NCBI GenBank assembly: GCA_963823665.1
Contig: CAWGMQ010000004.1
Location: forward strand, 2,656,001-2,720,000
DNA length: 64,000 bases
DNA from: an uncultured Planctomycetota bacterium
GTDB taxonomy: Bacteria; Planctomycetota; Planctomycetia; Isosphaerales; Isosphaeraceae
Direction: 5' to 3'
In this document: piece after piece, positions 43,539-52,788 of the stretch
How the letters are laid out: each line of letters starts with the position of its first letter
Numbering within the stretch: position 1 is the first letter of the stretch
Program-made: the position numbers and the translations under genes
The notes under the pieces: model-generated
Databases searched by the model: none
Told to the model about the DNA's origin: nothing
Seen by the model: only the letters and a program-made list of their open reading frames with translations

Positions 43539-43943
43539 TCAGTGTCGCGGTCGTCCGAAGGCGTGCGAAAGGGCTTTTGTTATTTCGATGATCAGACGAA
43601 GTATGAGGCTCAGTACCAAACCCACGATGAATCCTACGGCGGCGGCCTCGAACGCGTTGGATGCCAGTGTGGTGATCGCCTCGACGAGCGACGAAGCACG
43701 AGGCGCGGCATACCATAAGCCCCATCCGATGCTCAGCAACGCGGAAAATGCCGATTCGGAAAATGCGCCACCGAAGATATCCAAGCCGCCGTTAGCGCGG
43801 CTGATGAGGAAACCGGGGAGGAAAAGCATGAAATATGCGAGGAGTAAACCGACAGGTGATCGCAGCAAGGCGAAACAAAGGGCACACAAGGCGACGATGG
43901 CGACCAGCCGCCGGATCGTGAACTGAAAGCGTGGAAGTCGCAT
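43539..43943 (-). CDS. Small membrane protein with planctomycete-type 'RFQFTIRRL' N-terminus
   Basis: MRLPRFQFTIRRLVAIVALCA followed by hydrophobic helices. Confidence 0.6.
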   Translation of the reverse strand: MRLPRFQFTIRRLVAIVALCALCFALLRSPVGLLLAYFMLFLPGFLISRANGGLDIFGGAFSESAFSALLSIGWGLWYAAPRASSLVEAITTLASNAFEAAAVGFIVGLVLSLILRLIIEITKALSHAFGRPRH

Positions 43944-44030
43944 ACCCAATACTACAATCCCGCGTTTCGACTTGAGAACGTACAATGTAGCGACGCGAAT
44001 CGAGAGACTTCATCTGTGTCTGACTGATCG

Positions 44031-44876
44031 ATGATGAGCTCGGACAAACTCAACATGATGAACGGCGGCAACGGTCTGGTGTGCCCTGCGCTGCGCGAAT
44101 GGACGCCTGGCGGCCCAGTCTCCGGACTGGACGGGGATGAGATCGGTGTGTGGGTGGTGGAGCTGGACGCTGGGCTCGAGAGCCAGGCGGAGATTGACGG
44201 GGCAGAGCCGGGCCGTGAGCTTAAGGTGCTCGATGCGGAGGAGCGGGCGCGAGCGGCACGGTTTGTGCGGGCGCGGGACCGCAGGCGGTTTGCTCGTTGC
44301 CGATCGGCGTTGCGCGAGATACTGGGCGGCCTGGTTTGTGAGCAGCCGGAGGCGCTGCGGTTCCGAGCTGTGGCGCGGGGCAAACCCGAGCTGGATTTCC
44401 CCAACATCGACGGGAGAGAGCCGCCTGTTCGATTCAACGTCTCTCATTCATCCGAGCTCGCGGTGATTGCGGTCTGTCGCAGCCGGGAGCTGGGGGTTGA
44501 CGTTGAGCAGGTCAGGGCTATCGGCGAAGCCGAGCGGATCGTGGAATCCTTTTTCTCAGCGAACGAGCTGGCTGAGTTCGGCAGGATTGGCCCCGAGAAG
44601 AAAGCGATGGCGTTCCTCCGGGGGTGGACGCGCAAAGAGGCAATCCTTAAAGGGTTAGGCGTCGGAATCGCGGGACTGGCGGACCGTCATGAGACGGGAT
44701 TCGGGACTGGTGAGGTCACGGCTCGATTCTCTCCGGCGCTGCCGAACTGGCGCGTTGGGGCGTGGCAGCTCTGGGAGGCGTCTCCGCGCAGTGGCTTCGT
44801 GGCAACCGTTGCGTGCCGGGTGGATGCGATGGATGGCGATGCTGCAAGGACTGGGGGGCCGAATTCATGTGGTTAG
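44031..44876 (+). CDS. Sfp-type 4'-phosphopantetheinyl transferase
   Basis: Motifs GKPEL, FNVSHS, LGVDVE and WTRKEAILKG. Confidence 0.92.
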   Translation: MMSSDKLNMMNGGNGLVCPALREWTPGGPVSGLDGDEIGVWVVELDAGLESQAEIDGAEPGRELKVLDAEERARAARFVRARDRRRFARCRSALREILGGLVCEQPEALRFRAVARGKPELDFPNIDGREPPVRFNVSHSSELAVIAVCRSRELGVDVEQVRAIGEAERIVESFFSANELAEFGRIGPEKKAMAFLRGWTRKEAILKGLGVGIAGLADRHETGFGTGEVTARFSPALPNWRVGAWQLWEASPRSGFVATVACRVDAMDGDAARTGGPNSCG

Positions 44877-45703
44877 TGTTCCTCGGTCTTTGCGTCCTGG
44901 CGATTTATGTCGTCATCCGCCTGATGACCAATCTGAGCGCGTGGATCACGGGTGCGCGGTATCGGGCGTACCGGCAGGTTGCGGCGCGGTATCGGGGGCG
45001 TTACGAGACGCGAGGGCTCTCCGACCCGCCAACGGTCAGTTTCACGCACAACGGCGCGACGGTGAGGGTGGGCCTGGCGCCGACGATTCAGGGCCAACCG
45101 GGCCAGATTCCACGCACTCGCGTAGTCGCGCGGTTTGGCCAGGGAATTCCGTTCCGCATGGAGCTGGCGCCGGTGGCGCGACCGGCACCGCCGCAGTCGC
45201 CGCGGGCGACCCGGCCCGTGACGACGGGTGACCGGGAATTCGACAACGGGTACGTGGTCCGGGCCAACGACGTGGAGATGTCTCGCGACTTCCTGAACTC
45301 AACGATTCGCTCCACGGTGGCCGGTTTACAGCAGTTGGTTCATCGTGGTGGGATGCTGATCTCGATCAATCCAGAGCGGATGCTCGTGCAGGTGGACCGC
45401 AATCTAGGGACGAGCACGGAGCATCTTGCGTGGGTGGTCGAGCAAGCCCTGGTGCTGCACGACCGCCTGATTGAATCGGTGACGCGGCGAATGGGCGAAG
45501 GGGTGGACATCGTCGAGGAAGCCGAATCGTGGCCGGAGGATCAGGGTACGCCCACGTGCAAGGTTTGCGGCGACCCGATTGACGAAAGTGAGATCATCGT
45601 GTGTGCATCGTGTAACACTCCGCACCATCGTAACTGCTGGGAGTACAACGGTAATGCTTGCTCGATCTATGGGTGCAACGGCAAGGTCGGTGTCAGGGAG
45701 TGA
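44867..45703 (+). CDS. Membrane-anchored prokaryotic RING-finger protein (candidate E3)
   Basis: N-terminal TM MWLVFLGLCVLAIYVVI; C-terminal CKVC-x11-CASC-x3-HHRNCWEY-x4-CSIYGC (Prok-RING_1-like C4HC3). Confidence 0.75.
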   Translation: MWLVFLGLCVLAIYVVIRLMTNLSAWITGARYRAYRQVAARYRGRYETRGLSDPPTVSFTHNGATVRVGLAPTIQGQPGQIPRTRVVARFGQGIPFRMELAPVARPAPPQSPRATRPVTTGDREFDNGYVVRANDVEMSRDFLNSTIRSTVAGLQQLVHRGGMLISINPERMLVQVDRNLGTSTEHLAWVVEQALVLHDRLIESVTRRMGEGVDIVEEAESWPEDQGTPTCKVCGDPIDESEIIVCASCNTPHHRNCWEYNGNACSIYGCNGKVGVRE

Positions 45704-45738
45704 TTCTTTTGCAGCTTGAACCTATCAGGGAGCCCGAC

Positions 45739-46156
45739 ATGTCGAAAATGCGAGGAGCCCGGTGGCTGGCACCGGGTTTAGTTCTATTCGGTCTGCTGGT
45801 GGCCGGGGCGCCTTCGGCCGAGCCTTCGAAGGCCGAGGAGCGTCGGGAAAGCTCGACTTGAGGCGGCCAAAAAACAGTACGACGAAACCTGGGCGTACTA
45901 TCAGCAAGCCCGCATAGATTCCTATCAGGTTTATGTGTGGTCGCGCATCATGCTCGATTGCCGGCGGGAAATGGCGCCGAAGGCCGCCGACAGGCTGGTT
46001 GCGCTCGAGGAGCACCTGGCGCGGATGAAGAAGTTGGAGTCGCTGATTTCGCGGGTGCGCCGTCTGGGGTTTGGTCGTTCCTACGACGTAGGTGCTGCGG
46101 AATACTACCGATTGGAGGCAGAGCACTGGCTGGAGCTGGAACGTGCGCGTAAGTGA
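45739..46156 (+). CDS. Exported helical hypothetical protein (frameshift near 45845)
   Basis: Signal peptide MSKMRGARWLAPGLVLFGLLVAGA in one frame; helical domain RLEAAKKQYDETW...EAEHWLELERARK in another. Confidence 0.55.
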
Positions 46157-46325
46157 ACCGAGCAAAATCGGCGATAAGGAGTTTCGAGTTGGCGCGAAGA
46201 GCGTTATCCTGGTGGAAGGATCGCCGGACGGGTGATCTGGAGGCGAGCTGGGCTACTGAAAAGGCCGGGCTCTTCTCAATATTCAGCGGTGGCGGCCGAA
46301 GAGATGCTGAGGAGGTATACTGACC

Positions 46326-46628
46326 ATGTCATACGGCGGAACAGCCGATCCCAGCGGAATCCAGGTGACATTCCTGGACCAGACCGGCGCGAAGTCGGTC
46401 AAAGCGGTCATCGCCTTCAGCGTGCCCGTCAGCCGGATCATCCCCAATATCATTACCAAGATGAGTTTGCCCGCGACCAGTCCTGACGGGCAGCCGATGA
46501 GCTACTCCCTTGACCATAAAGAGGGTGGCCGGCGACTGCTTGAGAACTGGACGCTGGTTGAGGGGGGGGTCCAGAACGGCGACCACCTGATTGTGTATCC
46601 CGAGGTTGTAGCAGGACGGATTTGTTGA
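46326..46628 (+). CDS. Ubiquitin-like beta-grasp protein (EsaB/YukD-like) with C-terminal VVAG-RIC
   Basis: Strong GAGGAGG RBS; 'LLENWTLVEGGVQNGDHLIV' matches the ubiquitin-fold pattern L.E..TL...GV..GD.L.V; Gly97 is followed by a 3-aa tail. Confidence 0.85.
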   Translation: MSYGGTADPSGIQVTFLDQTGAKSVKAVIAFSVPVSRIIPNIITKMSLPATSPDGQPMSYSLDHKEGGRRLLENWTLVEGGVQNGDHLIVYPEVVAGRIC

Positions 46629-46752
46629 GGCCCAGCGTGGGTGCCGCGATTAGCTCGCGGCGCGCAGCAATGGTGCACGACAACTCTCGGCCCGCGCTCG
46701 ACTTCGATGCACCGGGAGGCCTCCGCAGGGGCCGAGGGGCGATCGCACGACC

Positions 46753-47610
46753 ATGTATCAATCTCCTCGCATGCGCCGCCTGCGAAACGATTTGGCGGCG
46801 CTAGAACGACTTCAATCGGAAAGCAGTGTCTTTCGCTTCAAAGCCCACGGCAAGCCGGCGCATCATTTCCTTATCCATTTAGTGGGTAAGAGTTTATACC
46901 GTTTGCGCGGCCAGGTGATGGCGCACGACGACCATCGCGTCGAGATCAAGCTCGGTGCGTCGTATCCGCGCACGATCCCGGAAATCCGCTGGATCACGCC
47001 GATCTATCACCCGAACATCTCCGAGATCGGGATGGTTTGCCTGGGTGGGTATGGAACGCACTGGGTGCCGAGCGTGCAGCTCGACGAGCTGTGCAACATG
47101 CTGTGGGACATGGCGCGGTATCACAACTACGACATCCGAAGCCCTTATAACCGAGATGCAGCGCTCTGGGTTGCGAGCCAGACGAAATTCCTGTTCCCGA
47201 CTGATCCACGACCGCTGCGAGACCTTCGGGCCGCGCTGGGCCGGGTCGAGCCAGCGATGGACGCGGCATCGGGGCCCAAGCATGCGGGGGGGGACGATCA
47301 CACGAACGGCTCGTCGAATTCGACTGCGAGTGATCCGGAGGGCGGCGAAACCACGCCGACTCGGGTTCGCCAGTTCATGAATCGCTATGGCGGCATTTTC
47401 GCCAAGAGTCCAGGCCGGCGGGGCGGTGATCAAGGCGAGCGGGCCGATGATCGAGACGAGATCACCAGGCCTGCTGCAGCGGGTTCGGCGCCGATCGCGA
47501 GCGCTGCGGCCGTGCCGCAGCGAGATGACGAAGAGATCATTCTTCTCGAGTCGGCCAGTGCGGCCGATCACAGGCGTGAGGGTGTCGACGGGATCACGTT
47601 CATCGAGTAA
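46753..47610 (+). CDS. Ubiquitin-conjugating enzyme E2 (UBC fold) with disordered acidic tail
   Basis: Helix 1 RRLRNDL; YPRTIPEIRWITPIYHPNISEIGMVCL (HPN 86-88, Cys96); SPYNRDAA. Confidence 0.9.
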   Translation: MYQSPRMRRLRNDLAALERLQSESSVFRFKAHGKPAHHFLIHLVGKSLYRLRGQVMAHDDHRVEIKLGASYPRTIPEIRWITPIYHPNISEIGMVCLGGYGTHWVPSVQLDELCNMLWDMARYHNYDIRSPYNRDAALWVASQTKFLFPTDPRPLRDLRAALGRVEPAMDAASGPKHAGGDDHTNGSSNSTASDPEGGETTPTRVRQFMNRYGGIFAKSPGRRGGDQGERADDRDEITRPAAAGSAPIASAAAVPQRDDEEIILLESASAADHRREGVDGITFIE

Positions 47611-47721
47611 CGTGAGACGCCGTGCGCCGTTGTGGGTGGATGCGATTGCGGAATTTCGCGCCGGTCACTCGCGCGACGGGGGACGGCCGGTGAATTCAAC
47701 GGGCCGCGGCGAGGAGTCGTG

Positions 47722-48984
47722 ATGGCGGACGAGCGACCCATGGAATCAACCGGTCAAGCTCCGGCTCCCGGGGCGACCGGCGCCGGGCAGGGAGCGGAAG
47801 GCAATGCCCTTGCCAGTCCCATGGTCATCGACGACCAGGACCGGTACAGCAGCCTTCGATTGATCTCGTGGTGGCGGCAGGATCGGCTGCGCTCGGCGAG
47901 CGTGCTCGTCGTCGGCGCCGGGGCTCTGGGCAATGAGGTCATGAAGAACCTGGCTCTGCTCGGATTGGGGACGATCTACCTGGTCGACTTCGATACGATT
48001 GAAGCCTCAAATCTTTCGCGATCGGTTTTATTTCGCGATTCGGACGCCGGGCGCCCCAAGGCGATGGTGGCCGCACAGCGGGCGCGCGAGCTCAATCCGG
48101 AGGTGACGATCATACCGATTCACGGTGACGTCATCGTGGACATCGGACTGGGGCTCTTTCACGACGTTGATCTGGTGATCGGCTGCCTCGACAACCGGGA
48201 AGCCCGGCTGTGGGTGAATCGCCAGTGCTGGAAAACGGGCACGCCGTGGATCGATGCGGGCATTCAGGAGATTCAAGGGGTGGTCAAGGTTTTCGTCCCG
48301 CCGGATTCGTCATGCTACGAGTGCGCGATGACCGAGCGCGATTATCAGCTTCTCAACCGCCGGTATAGCTGCCCACTACTCTCACGCGATGAGATCCTCT
48401 CGGGCAAAGTGCCGACGGCCCCGACGATCGCTTCGATGATGGCGGCGCTTCAAGTACAGGAAGCGCTCAAGCTCTTGCACGGCATGCCGGTCGCTGCGGG
48501 ATCGGCTCTTGTGTACAACGGAGTAGCGAACCAGTTCTATTCCACGCGGTTACCGTTCCGGGACGACTGCTTGAGCCACGAGACCTACCCGGCGGCGGTT
48601 GAGCTTCCGCTGGGTCAGAAGCAGACGGTGCGGGAGCTTTTCGAGGCAGTGGGGCCACGTCTTGATGGCCGGCTGCACCTGGTGCTCGAGCGGGAGCTGG
48701 TTGTGGCGATCGAATGCCCGCGATGCGATTGGCGCAGGGAGGTGATGCGGCCGCGGGTGAAGGTGAAGTCATCGGAAGCCGAGTGCCCGAGCTGCCGGGA
48801 ACCAGCACGGCCAACGTTCGAGAGCGGCATCGAGGCGGATTCACCGCTTGTTGCTTGCTCGCTTTCGCGAGTTGGAATTCCACCTTACGATATCGTGAGG
48901 GTGGACGGGGAAAGCGAGTCGGGATTCTTCCTGCTGGCCGCTGATCGGGAAGACGGCAAGACGGGCTGGGGGTCAGGCGGTTGA
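47722..48984 (+). CDS. E1-like ubiquitin-activating enzyme (ThiF/MoeB/UBA family)
   Basis: GAGGAG RBS; motifs VVGAGALGNEVMKNLALLG, DFD, SNLSR, CLDNREAR, CYEC and YSC217; extra C-terminal CPRC/CPSC. Confidence 0.92.
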   Translation: MADERPMESTGQAPAPGATGAGQGAEGNALASPMVIDDQDRYSSLRLISWWRQDRLRSASVLVVGAGALGNEVMKNLALLGLGTIYLVDFDTIEASNLSRSVLFRDSDAGRPKAMVAAQRARELNPEVTIIPIHGDVIVDIGLGLFHDVDLVIGCLDNREARLWVNRQCWKTGTPWIDAGIQEIQGVVKVFVPPDSSCYECAMTERDYQLLNRRYSCPLLSRDEILSGKVPTAPTIASMMAALQVQEALKLLHGMPVAAGSALVYNGVANQFYSTRLPFRDDCLSHETYPAAVELPLGQKQTVRELFEAVGPRLDGRLHLVLERELVVAIECPRCDWRREVMRPRVKVKSSEAECPSCREPARPTFESGIEADSPLVACSLSRVGIPPYDIVRVDGESESGFFLLAADREDGKTGWGSGG

Positions 48985-50387
48985 ACGGCGATGAAATCAC
49001 TTTCGGCGATGTGCGGGTTCGCGAGCCGGAGCGGCGCGCGCGGCCGGATCGGGACCGGCGATTTGCATCCGTTGCCTATGAAGTGCCGGGCGCGGCCGAC
49101 CTGCCGATCTTTCTCGATCGCCGCGCGGCGGACGCGATCGAACGGCACGCTCTCTCCGACACGTCGGTCGAGCTGGGTGGAATTCTGCTGGGCAAGGAAT
49201 GCCTCGACACGGCAACTGGACAGGCTTTCGTGTGGGTGAATCAGTCGCTCGAGGCCAAACACTACGCGAATACTCAGGCCAGCTTCACTTATACTCACGA
49301 TTCATGGGAAGAGATCACTCGAGAGCGCGACCAGCGGTTTCCGCAGTACGACATCGTCGGCTGGTATCACACGCATCCCAACTTCGGAATCTTTCTCTCG
49401 CACCACGATTTATTTATTCATCACAACTTTTTTTCACAGGCACTGCAAGTTGCCTACGTTGTTGACCCAATCAACCAGACTCGCGGTTTTTTCCAGTGGC
49501 GCGACGGCGGAATGGCGCAGGTGCAGGGTTACTACCTCACGGCGGATCGCGGCGATCGGATAGCACTGGCGAGGCTTGCGAACGACCTCGAGCAGCTTCC
49601 GAATGCGGAAGGCGGCTCGGGGGGAGCCTTTTCACCTCGCCTCGAAGCGGAGCTGATCAAGATGCTTACAAGAACTGGGCAGCGCGACGTCCATTCGCCG
49701 GTTGAGAGACTCCAGTTTGCCACTGTCTATGGCCTACTGGGGATTTTCCTCGGCGTGATGGGGCTGGCCACCGTGCTCTGGCTGAGCCAGCTTCTGGGCC
49801 AGATTCAGGCGATGAAGGAATCGATTCAGACTCGAGCGCGTGTGGACGAGGAATCAGCCGCGCGCGTGCGGCTGATGAGTGACGCTTTGCTGGAGCGAGC
49901 GGTCAAGGACCCTGTTGACTTCGTCGCGTTGTACGAGAAGAAGAAAAAAGAGCTAGATGACGTAGAGAAGCGAGCGGGAAGCTTAAGCACTTCAGTCGTA
50001 GAACTCGGGAGGGATCTGAAGCGCGAGCAGAAAGACAACGAGCGTCTGGTCAAGGAGCTTTCCGTTTCGAACGAGAAACTCGTGAAGGCCGAGGAGAAAG
50101 CCGCTGGAGCGGCGGAACTGAACTCGCGGGTTGTGGAGGTGGAAAAAGAGCGGGACACGCAGCAGCAGGAGCTCGCGGAGCTGAAGGAGCGGATAGACCC
50201 CGAAACCGGCCAAGTTGCTCTGGCAATGAAGCGCAAGCTGGATCGCACCCAATACATGATGTATGGGGGCTGGGCGTGCAGCGCGTTTCTCGGTGTCGCA
50301 ATCGCGGCCGCGTACTTCCTGCTCAAACCCGTTCCGAGCGTCCCCCTTGAGGATGACAAAGAGCGTCCCGCGCACCGGATCGAGTAA
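48981..50387 (+). CDS. JAB/MPN+ (JAMM) isopeptidase fused to TM-coiled coil-TM
   Basis: TTG start overlaps the E1 stop; ELGG and WYHTHP-x4-FLSHHD JAMM motif; two hydrophobic helices flank a long heptad region. Confidence 0.88.
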   Translation: MNGDEITFGDVRVREPERRARPDRDRRFASVAYEVPGAADLPIFLDRRAADAIERHALSDTSVELGGILLGKECLDTATGQAFVWVNQSLEAKHYANTQASFTYTHDSWEEITRERDQRFPQYDIVGWYHTHPNFGIFLSHHDLFIHHNFFSQALQVAYVVDPINQTRGFFQWRDGGMAQVQGYYLTADRGDRIALARLANDLEQLPNAEGGSGGAFSPRLEAELIKMLTRTGQRDVHSPVERLQFATVYGLLGIFLGVMGLATVLWLSQLLGQIQAMKESIQTRARVDEESAARVRLMSDALLERAVKDPVDFVALYEKKKKELDDVEKRAGSLSTSVVELGRDLKREQKDNERLVKELSVSNEKLVKAEEKAAGAAELNSRVVEVEKERDTQQQELAELKERIDPETGQVALAMKRKLDRTQYMMYGGWACSAFLGVAIAAAYFLLKPVPSVPLEDDKERPAHRIE

Positions 50388-50411
50388 GATCGATGCCCGA
50401 ACACAGGACAG

Positions 50412-51740
50412 ATGATGGGGGTTCGCAGAAACAATCGGTTGCTGCTGTGCTTCGTCACCCTTGCGGCCGTTCTTGTGGCGGCGGGGGCGTTCACGCTCGT
50501 TCGGGCGCAAACAGCCGCAGACGGTCAGCGCACCGCGTCTCGAGCCGGTGAAATTGAACCGGTACCCGTTCCGGAAGCGAGCGCGCGCGCTCTTGAGTTT
50601 TACTGGAGCGGAAACAGGCTCTGGATCCTGAATGTTGCCTGGGCAATGACGCTTCCGGGCTTGATGGCGTTTTCGGGTTTTTCTGCGCGGCTGCGGAACT
50701 TGGCAGCAAGGTTGGGGCGAGTGAGGTTCGTCACGCTTGGCCTGTACGTGCTGATGTATCTGGCGATCGTCTTCCTGGTCGACCTGCCGCTGTCTTACTA
50801 CGAAGGCTACGTGCGGCTGCATGCGTACGGACTTTCCAATCAGACGCTTGGCAAGTGGTTCGGCGATTCGGTCATCCGGTTGGCAATCTCGATGGTGGCG
50901 GGCGTCGCTCTGGCCTGGGTTCCTTATCTTTTGATTGCTCGCAGCCCGAAGCGCTGGTGGTTGTATACGGCGGTGCTCTCAGTACCGTTTCTGTTCGCGG
51001 TCATGTTGATCAAGCCAATCTGGATCGATCCGCTCTTCAATCGGTTTGGGCCGATGCACGACCTCGATCTCGAGCAGCAAATACTGAAACTAGCACGGAA
51101 GGCGGAAATTGCTGCGGACCGGGTGTTCGAGGTTGAAAAGAGCGTCGATACCAAGGCGGTGAACGCGTATGTGACGGGTGTGTTTGCGACAAAGAGAATC
51201 GTTCTCTGGGATACCTTGCTGGCCAAGCTGGACGCGCCGGAAGTGCTGCATGTGATGGGCCATGAAATGGGGCATTACGCCCTGGGACATGTGGTCCGTT
51301 CCATCGTTCTATCGGCCGGGCTCACGCTTGTTGGACTTTTCCTGGTTGATTGGGCGGGGCGCAAGCTGGTCGGCCGATTTGCAGGTCGACTCGGATTCGA
51401 GCGGCTTTCGGACGTTGCCTCGCTGCCGCTCGTGCTCTTGCTACTCGAAGTTGCGATGTTCGTGCTGACACCCGTTGCGCTAGCATACAGCCGACATCAG
51501 GAGCACGAGGCGGATAAGTACGCGCTCGATCTCGTTAGAGACAATCACTCGGGCGCCTTGTCGTTCGTGAAGTTGATGGAAACGAACCTCAGCAATCCGC
51601 GGCCGGGGCCAATTTACAAGTTTTTCCGCTCAAGTCACCCGAGCATCGGCGAACGAATTGACTTCTGCAACAGCTATCGGCCGCCGCGATCAAGCGAGTC
51701 TAAGCGGGGCGAAGAAGAGCCGCGTTATCGATCGAATTAA
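50412..51740 (+). CDS. M48 family (Ste24-like) membrane metalloprotease
   Basis: Motifs NAYVTG, RIVLWDTLL, HEMGH, EHEAD and SHPSIGERI; includes the N-terminal M48_N region. Confidence 0.92.
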   Translation: MMGVRRNNRLLLCFVTLAAVLVAAGAFTLVRAQTAADGQRTASRAGEIEPVPVPEASARALEFYWSGNRLWILNVAWAMTLPGLMAFSGFSARLRNLAARLGRVRFVTLGLYVLMYLAIVFLVDLPLSYYEGYVRLHAYGLSNQTLGKWFGDSVIRLAISMVAGVALAWVPYLLIARSPKRWWLYTAVLSVPFLFAVMLIKPIWIDPLFNRFGPMHDLDLEQQILKLARKAEIAADRVFEVEKSVDTKAVNAYVTGVFATKRIVLWDTLLAKLDAPEVLHVMGHEMGHYALGHVVRSIVLSAGLTLVGLFLVDWAGRKLVGRFAGRLGFERLSDVASLPLVLLLLEVAMFVLTPVALAYSRHQEHEADKYALDLVRDNHSGALSFVKLMETNLSNPRPGPIYKFFRSSHPSIGERIDFCNSYRPPRSSESKRGEEEPRYRSN

Positions 51741-51780
51741 CCAGCTTCATTCCTTGATGGTTTGCTAAAGGAACCTCTTC

Positions 51781-52296
51781 ATGGCCAGGCCCGAAACGAC
51801 CGAATACGCCTCCTACTATGGTAAATACATCACGCTGGTTCCTGAGCACGACATCATTGACGCGATGAAATCTGACGCTGCGAAGACGTTCGCTTTCCTG
51901 GCCGGCATTCCCGAAGCGGCCGCGTGCGTTCCTCACCCACCGTACACGTGGTCGATCAAGCAAGTGGTTGGGCATCTGAGCGATTGCGAGCGTGTATTTG
52001 GCTATCGTGCGCTTCGATTTGCGCGCGGGGATTCAACGCCGCTTCCCGGTTTCGACGAGAACACTTATGCAGCAGCGGCCCAACATAACAAGGTTCCGCT
52101 CGTCAGCCTGGTTTCCGAGCTCGAGAATCTGAGGAGATCGCACATCGCGTTCTTCGAGCAGCTTCCTGCGGAGGCGTGGCTACGTCGAGGCACTGCGAAC
52201 AACGCCGAGGTGAGCGTCCGCGCGCTGGCGTTCATTCTTGTCGGGCACGAACGGCATCATGCGGGAATCGTCCGGAAGCGGCTTTCGAAGCAATGA
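51781..52296 (+). CDS. DinB family protein
   Basis: Motifs WSIKQVVGHLSDCER, LPGFDEN and GHERHH. Confidence 0.9.
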   Translation: MARPETTEYASYYGKYITLVPEHDIIDAMKSDAAKTFAFLAGIPEAAACVPHPPYTWSIKQVVGHLSDCERVFGYRALRFARGDSTPLPGFDENTYAAAAQHNKVPLVSLVSELENLRRSHIAFFEQLPAEAWLRRGTANNAEVSVRALAFILVGHERHHAGIVRKRLSKQ

Positions 52297-52309
52297 GTGC
52301 GGGCGACGT

Positions 52310-52788
52310 AGGTAATCTGTCTCTTCCTTTGCCGGACACCCGGGATACTGCTCGCGAATCGCTCTTGCAAATGCGGCGATGAATTCATGGTCTTCGTGTT
52401 GGCGGCGATCCGCGGCCCGCGCCTGACGCCGCGCACGTAGTTCCGCGTCCGCGAGTGATTCTTCCTCTGCGCGGAGCAGCGCTTCCGGCTCGACCAGGAT
52501 GCCCTGCCGCTCATATCGTTTACGCGTACGCGACCAGCGAACGACGACCGCGCGTAGCGTTGAGTATTTACTGGCCCGGCGCGTCACCGCCGCATCACCG
52601 CTGGGCAAAAACTCCAGCCGGTCGAGATCTGCACAGCTCGTGCAAAGGGCCTTCTCCCCCTCCAGCCGCAGCAGACTGCCCTTCCACAGCTCAGCACCGC
52701 ATTCCGTGCACTTGGTCTCACGAATCACGGAGAAGACGACGATCTCTGCTCCGGAGCCGCTTTTCGGTTTGTCTGCCTTGCGAGCCAT
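52310..52788 (-). pseudogene. DUF2293-type protein, 3' truncated
   Basis: CTECG...LCTSCADL, LPSGDAAVTRRA and RYERQG, ending at YPGCP; the frame then runs into the antisense strand of dinB. Confidence 0.65.

Follow-up and report, generated by a model that had tools for sequence, protein, structure and literature searches.

A probable membrane-held Rpn11-type JAMM deubiquitinase with two predicted transmembrane helices and a coiled-coil rod in a ubiquitin-like operon of Isosphaeraceae

What does a JAMM isopeptidase do in a bacterium when its catalytic domain is followed by two hydrophobic helices with a long coiled coil between them? The question is raised by a gene at 48981..50387 (+ strand) of the window, that is, the whole stretch of 64,000 nucleotides that was analysed. 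The gene encodes 468 amino acids from a TTG start, as judged from the open reading frame, Pfam, hydropathy and homologs. It overlaps the stop of the preceding E1 gene by 4 nt, and the resulting N-terminus, MNGDEITF, is the common start point of the homologs. Its product (JAB) is probably an Rpn11-type JAMM deubiquitinase held in the membrane by two transmembrane (TM) helices; the catalytic domain would lie in the cytoplasm and a coiled-coil rod of about 155 residues in the periplasm.

An N-terminal extension and the MPN+/JAMM catalytic domain occupy aa 1–189 (48981..49547, +), as delimited by Pfam, AlphaFold2 (pLDDT >90), Foldseek and VIA. The JAMM strings quoted in an earlier note on this DNA are in place, with ELGG at aa 64–67 and HTHP at aa 130–133, followed by S140 and D143. 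An alignment of 118 sequences shows no exception at H130, H132, S140 or D143 and very little variation at E64, and the active site, with its full E/HxH/S..D set, is intact. Pfam matches aa 48–150 to JAB (PF01398, 3.1e-9, 37.1 bits against a cut-off of 22.5) and to Prok-JAB (PF14464, 1.2e-6). By sequence, the best solved relative is the Rpn11-like protein of Caldiarchaeum (6fjv, 9.7e-7), followed by Rpn11, AMSH and CSN5; by fold, Caldiarchaeum Rpn11 and the eukaryotic Rpn11, AMSH and CSN5 also lead, in both Foldseek and VIA. The AlphaFold2 model, built on a 118-row alignment (mean pLDDT 85.7, pTM 0.58), retrieved Rpn11 (5u4p_B, E 3.1e-11, TMt 0.79) and Caldiarchaeum Rpn11 (CsRpn11, 6fnn, TMt 0.77) in Foldseek, and VIA matched it to 4o8x_B with Z 17.4 and an rmsd of 3.0 over 155 residues, which places the domain in the MPN fold. 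Beyond this domain the model contains helices at 240–306, 311–404 and 407–447.

RING, ubiquitin-like (Ubl), E2, E1 and JAB genes all lie on the + strand within 44762–50387, their Pfam matches exceed the curated cut-offs, and JAB is the last enzyme gene of the operon. The E3 candidate, with an N-terminal TM helix and a C-terminal Prok-RING_1 finger, is read from Met36 of the open reading frame 44762–45703 (44867..45703, +; PF14446, 7e-10). The YukD-like Ubl precursor has 100 aa (46326..46628, +; PF08817, 7e-13), the UBC-type E2 has the HPN ... Cys motif (46753..47610, +; PF00179, 3.6e-12), and the E1 is of ThiF type (47632..48984, +; PF00899, 4.2e-60). Among 40 sampled loci of the family, E1 and E2 are each present in 38 and Ubl in 37; a RING gene within 7 kb on the same strand is found in only 19, and only seven retain the upstream PPT gene. 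Housekeeping genes flank the operon. A scan of 43900–52400 returned no promoter-like and four terminator-like sites, fewer than in shuffled sequence. Among public sequencing runs matched to 46326–51740 no RNA run was listed, only DNA runs of soil metagenomes with small word shares (at most 0.17). Between RING and Ubl lies a gene for a small secreted helical protein, frameshifted in the window. The idea that this protein meets the coiled coil in the periplasm was dropped, because the gene is found in only 5/40 sampled family loci and is frameshifted here.

Gly97 of the Ubl, after which the earlier note had expected cleavage, is indeed the conserved glycine: the precursor ends in PEVVAG97-RIC, and its relatives (C-termini of 54 were compared) share the glycine followed by a variable tail. 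PE[VI][VT]AG is conserved in the Ubl C-termini, and among 50 that were parsed the tail measures 2–21 aa in 36 and is absent in 14. Cleavage after this glycine is predicted because of the operon, the conserved glycine with its variable tail, and the biochemistry of CsRpn11. By analogy, JAB would mature the Ubl by cutting RIC off its precursor behind Gly97 and would also strip Ubl from conjugates, an activity that the homolog from Caldiarchaeum has in vitro. In a second family of the class, 6/7 loci have an extra soluble JAB in the operon, so that precursor trimming and membrane deconjugation may be separate jobs; which of them the single JAB performs here, we can only infer.

The remainder of the protein bears on where this activity would take place. 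A linker (aa 190–245; 49548..49715, +) comprises, in the AlphaFold2 model, a helix at 190–203, a Gly-rich stretch of low confidence at about 204–218 and a juxtamembrane helix at 219–230. It leads to the hydrophobic helix TM1 (aa 246–269; 49716..49787, +), which is rich in small residues and has G251, G254 and A263 conserved as G/A/S. The second hydrophobic helix, TM2 (aa 428–450; 50262..50330, +), has conserved G430 and G/A440 and is followed by R/K in most homologs. The strings given for the two helices beforehand, FATVYG...VLWL and MMYGGW...YFLL, occupy aa 246–268 and aa 426–448, respectively. A short C-terminal tail (aa 451–468; 50331..50384, +) is modelled with low confidence; P455 is conserved at 88%, and the ERPxHRIE end is common to close relatives. 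Kyte–Doolittle windows of 19 residues reach at least 1.4 only at aa 244–275 and 426–456.

These segments might be thought not to span the membrane but to form a buried core or a peripheral association, which would leave the coiled coil in the cytoplasm. Such a reading, to which the uninformative flanking charges give some room, is hardly credible in view of two segments of 23–24 residues, most of them apolar (mean hydropathy up to 2.0), whose ends carry aromatic and basic residues and whose position, not sequence, is conserved among homologs. AlphaFold2 puts them in long helices outside the globular domain, and some relatives have just one segment of this kind, either at the very C-terminus or ahead of LysM. 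One of these (L018) is tail-anchored, ends a few residues past its only TM and has K/R/H on the JAB side; another (P0265) is a JAB-TM-LysM protein, in which the peptidoglycan-binding LysM scores 27 bits against a cut-off of 20.9. In 118 homologs the K+R counts flanking the helices (1.25, 1.64, 1.92 and 1.83 per 15 aa) leave the topology undecided, and the positive-inside rule was dropped as a guide, the flanking charges being uninformative in the JAB family. Because relatives end just after one TM or carry LysM behind it, the most likely topology predicted from sequence has the catalytic domain facing the cytoplasm and the rod facing the periplasm, in line with the cytoplasmic protease and extracytoplasmic coiled coil that the earlier note had proposed.

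Between the helices lies the heptad-repeat region (aa 270–425; 49788..50255, +), modelled as a helix to residue 306, a break at KDPVD, a continuous helix at 311–404, a break at DPETG and a helix running into TM2. Hydropathy was averaged over the query and the 19 homologs nearest to it, and its power at period 3.5 was compared with that of 2000 shuffles. For aa 312–403 the power is 46.8 against 5.3 ± 5.2 in shuffles, none of which reaches this value, and for the whole of aa 270–425 it is 44.5 against 6.2, a value reached by about one shuffle in 2000; the JAB domain, taken as a control, gives 5.1 against 7.9. The stretch of about 155 aa, previously described as heptad-rich, thus carries a coherent period-3.5 signal far above shuffles. 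Its composition is that of a coiled coil biased to A/E/L/R/Q/K, with no Cys. A Pfam scan of aa 270–425 gave no domain match, and a Protein Atlas search with aa 236–468 gave no usable match. In VIA, model residues 310–409 superpose as one straight helix on tetherin (3MQ7) with Z 7.6, which is not above chance for long helices; the coiled-coil chains matched by the rod (Z about 7.7) were likewise rejected as relatives, since such a score is usual for unrelated long helices, and the matches show only a straight, unpaired model helix. A helix of about 92 residues without an intra-chain partner therefore likely pairs between subunits, and the rod would be an anchor that oligomerises or spaces the enzyme and not a sensor of a ligand.

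The layout nevertheless recalls a receptor, in which the periplasmic coiled coil would sense the state of the envelope and switch the cytoplasmic JAB via TM1 and TM2. The order enzyme, TM, about 155 periplasmic residues, TM agrees in size with two-TM sensors, whose periplasmic part is about as long; the architecture is kept down to about 25–30% sequence identity, and in relatives the TM is followed by TPR or LysM modules. We still consider a sensor unlikely. The loop is poorly conserved, with a mean top-residue frequency of 0.30 among homologs versus 0.69 in the JAB domain, which makes a site for a specific ligand less likely; it measures anything between 107 and 190 aa, and neither its coiled-coil composition nor the Pfam scan speaks for a sensory domain. 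There also appears to be no mid-loop break that would make room for a four-helix bundle: a single heptad phase runs across aa 312–403, no central Pro/Gly break occurs in homologs, and Pro is nearly absent from the central 35–80% of the loop, the median longest Pro-free stretch being 88.5 aa (118 homologs). AlphaFold2 models three loop helices, of 37, 94 and 21 residues, where a 4HB_MCP-like up-down-up-down bundle would have four similar ones. Moreover, the Gly-rich, low-confidence linker at aa 204–218 would be a poor conduit for conformational signals between JAB and membrane, and in L018 any periplasmic part is missing.

The fusion of JAB, TM helices and coiled coil, which could have been a read-through artefact, turned out to be conserved. 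Two hydrophobic segments are present in 102 of the 120 best homologs, each at least 420 aa long, and at the same places in 100 of 116 long JAMM-bearing representatives of 50%-identity clusters; three of the 120 stop after TM1, and these we read as frameshifts. In a tree of 66 JAB domains, 35 rows from two families form one clade (support 99/93), of which 31 score two TM segments and the other four are threshold or frameshift cases. A related two-TM form (P0216) is annotated in its source as a protein of Pirellula staleyi DSM 6068, a cultured strain. Within the window's own family, Isosphaeraceae, a JAB match is found in 109/121 genomes and 51/53 genera; most of these genomes have one full-length copy, and the gene order is conserved; one genus lacks it (0/8 genomes). 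The second family has it in 11/44 sampled genomes, and two further families gave no JAB match (0/97 and 0/88 genomes). Presence in 109/121 genomes, single copies, kept gene order and a JAB tree grouped by family suggest vertical descent rather than a sporadic island.

This distribution weighs on the reading of the operon as an anti-phage defence island of the Bil or CBASS kind, in which JAB would mature or remove a Ubl that tags phage proteins. A preprint voices the opinion that uncharacterised bacterial Ubl/E1/E2/RING/DUB operons are expected to be defence systems (bioRxiv 10.1101/2023.09.26.559546), and PADLOC gives weak matches to JAB and E1-E2 models. For BilABCD, however, the PADLOC result consists of a generic BilD match (1.8e-11) among 33 E1 matches and of weak generic JAB matches; the matches are at domain level, and Ubl, E2 and RING are without any. 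As regards CBASS, E1 and E2 are separate genes here and not a Cap2 fusion, the scan of eight ORFs turned up no nucleotidyltransferase, and the fold match of Cap3 to the JAB model (9ild_A, Z 13.5) ranks below Rpn11 in VIA. With housekeeping genes on both flanks and a descent that follows the family, in place of the sporadic, mobile distribution reported for the operon class, defence appears very unlikely.

Another reading arises from the 3' side, where a Ste24-like M48 membrane metalloprotease is encoded 25 nt behind JAB (50412..51740, +; PF01435, 2.9e-36; PF16491, 6.4e-20). The neighbouring protease might cut the tethered JAB or tagged substrates, so that the deubiquitinase is released, or the tagging might feed the protease as Rpn11 feeds the proteasome. 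M48 stands directly downstream on the same strand in 35/40 family loci, compared with 7/40 for the upstream PPT gene; the gap in the window contains no terminator-like site, the pair is unbroken where insertions part E1 from JAB (L043, L045, L046), and some loci hold JAB and M48 alone (L051, L083). A TM-Trypsin_2 gene is further present in 9/14 phylum loci of related operons whose JABs have one TM, several of these loci being cut by contig ends. On the other hand, the genus without JAB (0/8) keeps an M48 ortholog (7/8), a genus with JAB (5/5) has no M48 match at E 1e-60 (0/5), the two genes lie far apart in another genus (e.g., G489), and in the second family, which has two-TM JABs, M48 is adjacent in 0/7 loci. 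Regulated proteolysis of this kind is thus quite improbable, and membership of M48 in the Ubl system is uncertain; M48 as an obligate partner was rejected, given that adjacency in 35/40 loci is accompanied by uncoupled phyletic patterns and absence from the operons of the second family. While the neighbouring membrane protease is an M48 enzyme here, operons of the one-TM type encode a trypsin-like peptidase with a TM anchor in that role.

We return to the membrane-held deubiquitinase as the preferred reading. JAB would act at the membrane, beside a membrane-anchored RING E3, and the system would then place a ubiquitin-like mark on proteins in or near the membrane and take it off again. A wider and rather doubtful extension is that the family runs a vertically inherited housekeeping Ubl system on the cytoplasmic membrane, with an integral-membrane writer (TM-RING) and eraser (JAB), as a counterpart of the ubiquitin pathways of the ER membrane; the rod, about 14 nm or longer and anchored at both ends, would dimerise in the periplasm and confine or space the enzyme by membrane geometry, for instance in invaginations. 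Membrane invaginations are typical of Planctomycetia of this family.

In full-text literature searches we found no study of the JAB-TM-coiled coil-TM architecture, although Burroughs 2011/2012 may already mention TM-bearing JABs; the searches likewise yielded no experiment on this JAB or any bacterial member of its operon class, and nothing relevant for Isosphaeraceae together with ubiquitin. Bacterial cascades of eukaryote-like E1, E2, RING and DUB have so far been regarded as rare and mobile, with defence as their probable role. Here one is present in almost all sampled genomes of a planctomycete family, and its eraser and, where encoded nearby, its E3 are predicted membrane proteins; both findings suggest that it serves the cell itself, at the membrane. 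The family offers a defined test case, which could reveal the function of a ubiquitin-type mark in cells that have no known proteasome to read it, and the two-anchor coiled coil, for which nothing was found in print, is an unusual way of mounting an enzyme on a membrane.

How does the protein compare with known systems? The earlier note set it against the JABs of sulfur-transfer, CBASS and Bil operons, a comparison that overlooks a closer context, the Ubl-E1-E2-RING-JAB class, whose E3 and JAB proteins commonly have a membrane anchor. Like BRCC36, Rpn11 and CSN5, the protein has an MPN+ domain followed by long helices, and the BRCC36 complex is among its fold matches (6gvw_B and 6h3c_B in Foldseek; 5cw3_A, Z 15.0, in VIA). 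The helices of those enzymes are cytosolic and pair with MPN- partners, whereas those of JAB lie between two TMs, and no MPN- partner gene was seen at the JAB locus. In BST-2/tetherin the second anchor is a lipid. Its ectodomain (3MQ7) resembles the JAB rod in layout only, both being coiled coils anchored to the membrane at their two ends; there is no homology, and tetherin is an animal antiviral protein with no enzyme domain.

CsRpn11 of Caldiarchaeum subterraneum (6FJU, 6FJV, 6FNN; PMC6043591, PMC5654768) resembles JAB in sequence (9.7e-7) and fold (TMt 0.77 in Foldseek, Z 14.9 in VIA); its operon is of the same kind, encoding Ubl, E1, E2 and a RING of small size, and the Ubl precursor likewise has a tail behind the glycine. 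According to PMC6043591, it cleaves both the Ub precursor tail and conjugates in vitro. In contrast to JAB, CsRpn11 is a soluble chain of 228 residues without TM helices or coiled coil, the Ubl there ends in Gly-Gly instead of Ala-Gly, and the RING here carries a TM helix.

A further comparison is with the one-TM JAB operons of other Planctomycetota and of Acidobacteriota, ordered Ubl-E1-JAB-(multiTM-FHA)-RING-(TM-trypsin)-E2, one of which is also found in the window's genome (C4:2467211-2475134). JAB has one TM in 13/14 phylum loci of these related operons, which carry TM-anchored RINGs and a multi-TM FHA protein. Their JABs are Rpn11-like, with the TM about 100 aa behind the JAMM motif and membrane-protein E3s in the operon, as for the window JAB; unlike it, they form a separate clade (21 rows, support 92/83) and have no second TM, their C-terminal part measures a few residues or about 170–195 aa, and gene order and accessory genes differ.

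The operon described here falls within a class that Burroughs, Iyer and Aravind (2011, Mol Biosyst 7:2261) reportedly predicted by computer, namely prokaryotic operons of YukD-like Ubl, E1, E2, Prok-RING_1 and JAB, and the window operon has the same five components of the same Pfam families. The prediction is cited in PMC3417536 and PMC4197634; the latter names Planctomycetes and Acidobacteria as carriers and describes such operons as sporadic and often missing in close relatives, whereas the JAB gene here occurs in 109/121 genomes of one family. The two-TM coiled-coil anchor is a variant of this operon class predicted in 2011.

The JAB gene (48981–50387, forward strand, 468 aa) opens with a TTG start codon in a 4-base overlap with the stop of the preceding E1 gene, and the resulting N-terminus, MNGDEITF, is the common start in homologs from other genomes. 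It is a real, conserved gene, and its product is a membrane-embedded variant of an Rpn11-like eraser in a predicted bacterial ubiquitin-type system. Residues 48–150 match the Pfam families JAB (PF01398, 3.1e-9) and Prok-JAB (1.2e-6). Aligned with 117 homologs of 25–81% identity (118 rows in all), the query shares the JAMM residues H130, H132, S140 and D143 with every sequence and E64 with nearly all. The best solved relative by sequence is CsRpn11, the Caldiarchaeum subterraneum Rpn11 homolog (6fjv, 9.7e-7), followed by Rpn11, AMSH and CSN5; fold searches point to the same relatives (Rpn11 5u4p_B, E 3.1e-11, TMt 0.79; CsRpn11 6fnn, TMt 0.77). The catalytic assignment, as predicted from these matches, is solid, and so is the conservation of the gene. 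Hydropathy windows of 19 residues reach at least 1.4 only at aa 244–275 and 426–456, which correspond to the two transmembrane (TM) helices, TM1 and TM2, of the earlier note. That note had also described a JAMM motif (ELGG; HTHP...S..D), found in place as E64-L-G-G, H130-T-H132-P, S140 and D143, and a heptad-rich stretch between the helices, where the 3.5-residue periodicity is far above that of shuffled sequences; every detail of its layout was confirmed.

The fusion of the JAB domain to the TM/coiled-coil part, whose conservation had been proposed as a check, is kept in homologs. Among the best 120 of 822 matches in a 90%-clustered protein collection, 102 are at least 420 aa long and show two hydrophobic segments, another 14 have full length and a single segment above the threshold, one has three segments, and 3 short proteins (297–348 aa) diverge from the family right after TM1, as frameshifts would make them do. 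A search of 50%-identity representatives returned 4834 matches at E ≤0.001, including 347 at ≤1e-30. The best 150 of these 4834 include 116 proteins of at least 380 aa with the JAMM motif, and exactly two hydrophobic segments occur at the same positions in 100 of the 116 (one in 12, none in 2, three in 2). The two-segment layout of 102/120 and 100/116 relatives excludes a read-through or other artefact as the source of the fusion.

The ~155 residues between TM1 and TM2 show a strong 3.5-residue periodicity. Its power reaches 46.8 over aa 312–403, against 5.3 ± 5.2 in shuffled sequences (0 of 2000 shuffles as high), and 44.5 against 6.2 over aa 270–425; the 3.5-residue signal was not seen in the JAB domain, used as the control. 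Because the two halves of aa 312–403 (21.1 + 29.2) together give about the power of the whole stretch, we read it as a single unbroken heptad register. AlphaFold2, run on the 118-row alignment (mean pLDDT 85.7, pTM 0.58), predicts the MPN domain with confidence, then a Gly-rich linker of low confidence (~aa 204–218), helices at 240–306, 311–404 and 407–447, and a disordered tail. Across homologs the loop measures 107–190 aa (median 143), is rich in A/E/L/R/Q/K, lacks Cys and shows little sequence conservation (top-residue frequency 0.30 on average vs 0.69 in the JAB domain). Its Pro residues cluster at the loop start and at 20–35% and 80–100% of its length, with nearly none in the central 35–80%, and the longest Pro-free stretch has a median of 88.5 aa. 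Judging from this Pro placement, the succession of short helix, break, ~90-residue helix, break and short helix is a family-wide pattern.

The central helix of the loop, ~92 residues and ~14 nm long, has no length-matched partner within the chain, since the flanking helices comprise only 37 and 21 residues, and both TM1 and TM2 are rich in conserved small residues. Taken together, these features point to pairing between subunits. In the VIA comparison, the modelled central helix is straight and can be fitted onto single chains of dimeric or tetrameric coiled coils, with a Z of ~7.7 that is not above chance for long helices. A specific sensor domain in the loop finds no support, because the loop is poorly conserved, variable in length, without a central break of the kind that would permit a four-helix bundle, and missing altogether from some JAB relatives. 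TM1 (49716–49787) carries a mid-membrane Gln in 82/118 homologs and Phe in the query and its closest relatives, and only close relatives share the ERPxHRIE sequence at the extreme C-terminus.

Export signals are absent from E1, E2 and Ubl, so that the JAB domain must work in the cytoplasm. If TM1 crosses the membrane once, the loop would be periplasmic and TM2 would return the short tail to the JAB side; this topology is the likely one. Three sequence features of relatives serve as independent hints: a Phycisphaeraceae JAB (L018) ends a few residues past a single TM, with K/R/H on the JAB side; a metagenomic representative (P0265, 395 aa) joins a JAB domain, a TM at aa 259–283 and a short helical stretch to a LysM peptidoglycan-binding domain (27 bits, cut-off 20.9); and Arg or Lys follows TM2 in most homologs. 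Overall K+R counts flanking the helices do not discriminate topology among the homologs. In other JAB relatives the TM is followed by TPR or HEAT repeats (P0220, P0243, P0253, P0266), and two relatives (P0262, P0269) each contain two JAB domains.

The gene closes a forward-strand series consisting of a RING protein (TM helix at the N-terminus, Prok-RING_1 finger at the C-terminus; 44867–45703, PF14446, 7e-10), a small secreted helical protein with a signal peptide (45739–46156), a YukD-like Ubl (46326–46628, 7e-13), a UBC-type E2 with HPN and Cys (46753–47610, 3.6e-12) and a ThiF E1 (47632–48984, 4.2e-60). The small secreted protein is frameshifted in the assembly near 45840–45850; it is intact, ~138 aa from Met, at L003 and L004. 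In 40 loci from other genomes of the window's family, some of which share a genus and are thus not all independent, E1 and E2 were each found in 38, Ubl in 37, RING in 19 and the small secreted protein in 5. A 4'-phosphopantetheinyl transferase gene (44031–44876), which ends just past the predicted RING start at 44867, lies upstream in only 7/40 and is therefore probably unrelated.

Behind the JAB gene, at a distance of 25 nt, lies a Ste24-like M48 metalloprotease (50412–51740, forward strand; HEMGH, five-helix N-terminal domain). It directly follows the JAB gene in 35 of the 40 family loci, far above the transferase background, and the pair persists where the other operon genes have moved away (L043, L045, L046, L051, L083), which suggests that the two are co-transcribed. 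Genus-level presence, at an M48 ortholog cut-off of E ≤1e-60, is uncoupled and speaks against an obligate partnership: a JAB-less genus keeps the ortholog in 7/8 genomes, a genus with JAB in 5/5 genomes has it in 0/5, and in another the M48 gene lies far from JAB on the chromosome (e.g., G489). M48 is therefore counted only as a possible accessory, not as part of the operon.

A match to the JAB protein occurs in 109/121 genomes and 51/53 genera of the window's order, represented by a single family in the collection, and most family genomes with JAB have a single full-length copy; one genus of the family has no match (0/8 genomes). The closest homologs are named Isosphaeraceae or Isosphaerales by their sources. 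In an even phylum sample, 43/401 genomes match at ≤1e-10, nearly all via the JAB domain alone. A class-wide search with another two-TM member (P0216, source name Pirellula staleyi DSM 6068) found 87/98 genomes of the window's family, 11/44 of a second family (f3), 1/21 of a third, and 0/97 and 0/88 of two large families. The window's genome (16.46 Mb, 12 contigs, completeness 91.9%, contamination 3.5%) is very large for a bacterium, as are two family relatives of 16.0–16.1 Mb.

In a maximum-likelihood tree of 66 JAB domains (midpoint root, for drawing only; rows with <80 aa between ORF start and JAMM motif, a domain of <140 aa or a phmmer E >1e-15 were left out), rows from the window's family and f3 form one clade (35 rows, support 99/93). 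Two TM segments are scored in 31 of these, the other 4 being threshold or frameshift cases. The one-TM JABs fall into a clade of their own (21 rows, 92/83) and the soluble JABs of f3 into a third group (6 rows, 89/90); the closest outgroups to the two-TM clade are soluble JABs of an uncultured bacterium and a Methanoperedens archaeon.

All seven f3 loci (L062–L068; genomes G531, G552, G544, G643, G554, G730, G592) have the order Ubl, E2, soluble JAB (seen in 6/7, ~180–220 aa), E1, two-TM JAB, second E2 and 1–2 RINGs with an N-terminal TM; M48 is absent from all 7, and the flanks are housekeeping genes. The paired JABs suggest a split between precursor trimming and membrane deconjugation. The one-TM operon (Ubl, E1, JAB with one TM, multi-TM FHA protein, RINGs with two C-terminal TMs, TM-anchored trypsin-like peptidase, E2) was found in 13/14 loci from the phylum sample, in Acidobacteriota loci and, complete, in the window's own genome, ~235 kb upstream on the same contig (C4:2467211-2475134; L069, L002). 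In this last copy the JAB reading frame is interrupted shortly ahead of the expected TM, and the TM and helical tail go on in another frame, owing to an error in the assembly or to a genuine frameshift. As the TM-bearing RINGs and JABs of the window, f3 and one-TM operons show, E3 and JAB alike are as a rule anchored in the membrane in this operon class; what sets the window gene's clade apart is a second TM and the rod that links the two anchors. Across all operon types, the 50 parsed of 54 Ubl genes end in PE[VI][VT]AG, followed by no tail in 14/50 and by 2–21 variable residues in 36/50; the window's Ubl ends in PEVVAG97-RIC. CsRpn11 cuts the Ub precursor as well as conjugates in vitro (PMC6043591), and it is a well-founded inference that the window's JAB would likewise trim its Ubl precursor after Gly97 and deconjugate Ubl.

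An operon class of YukD-like Ubl, E1, E2, Prok-RING_1 and JAB was reportedly predicted by Burroughs, Iyer and Aravind in 2011. One article (PMC4197634) places related operons in Actinobacteria, Planctomycetes and Acidobacteria and describes them as uncharacterised, scattered sporadically and frequently absent from close relatives, whereas the window's JAB is near-universal in one family. A 2023 preprint on Bil mentions RING-type E3s as rare and several families of uncharacterised operons that are presumed to serve defence (bioRxiv 10.1101/2023.09.26.559546). New against this background are that near-universal presence, the finding that the two-TM coiled-coil anchor common to two families arose only once and, as modelled, the continuous-rod geometry of the loop. 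Membership in Bil or CBASS is rejected, as PADLOC gave generic domain matches only on the window operon and the distribution is not island-like. In the VIA fold comparison, the window's JAB gives a Z of 17.4 to 4o8x_B, 13.6 to BilC (8tyy_B) and 13.5 to Cap3 (9ild_A).
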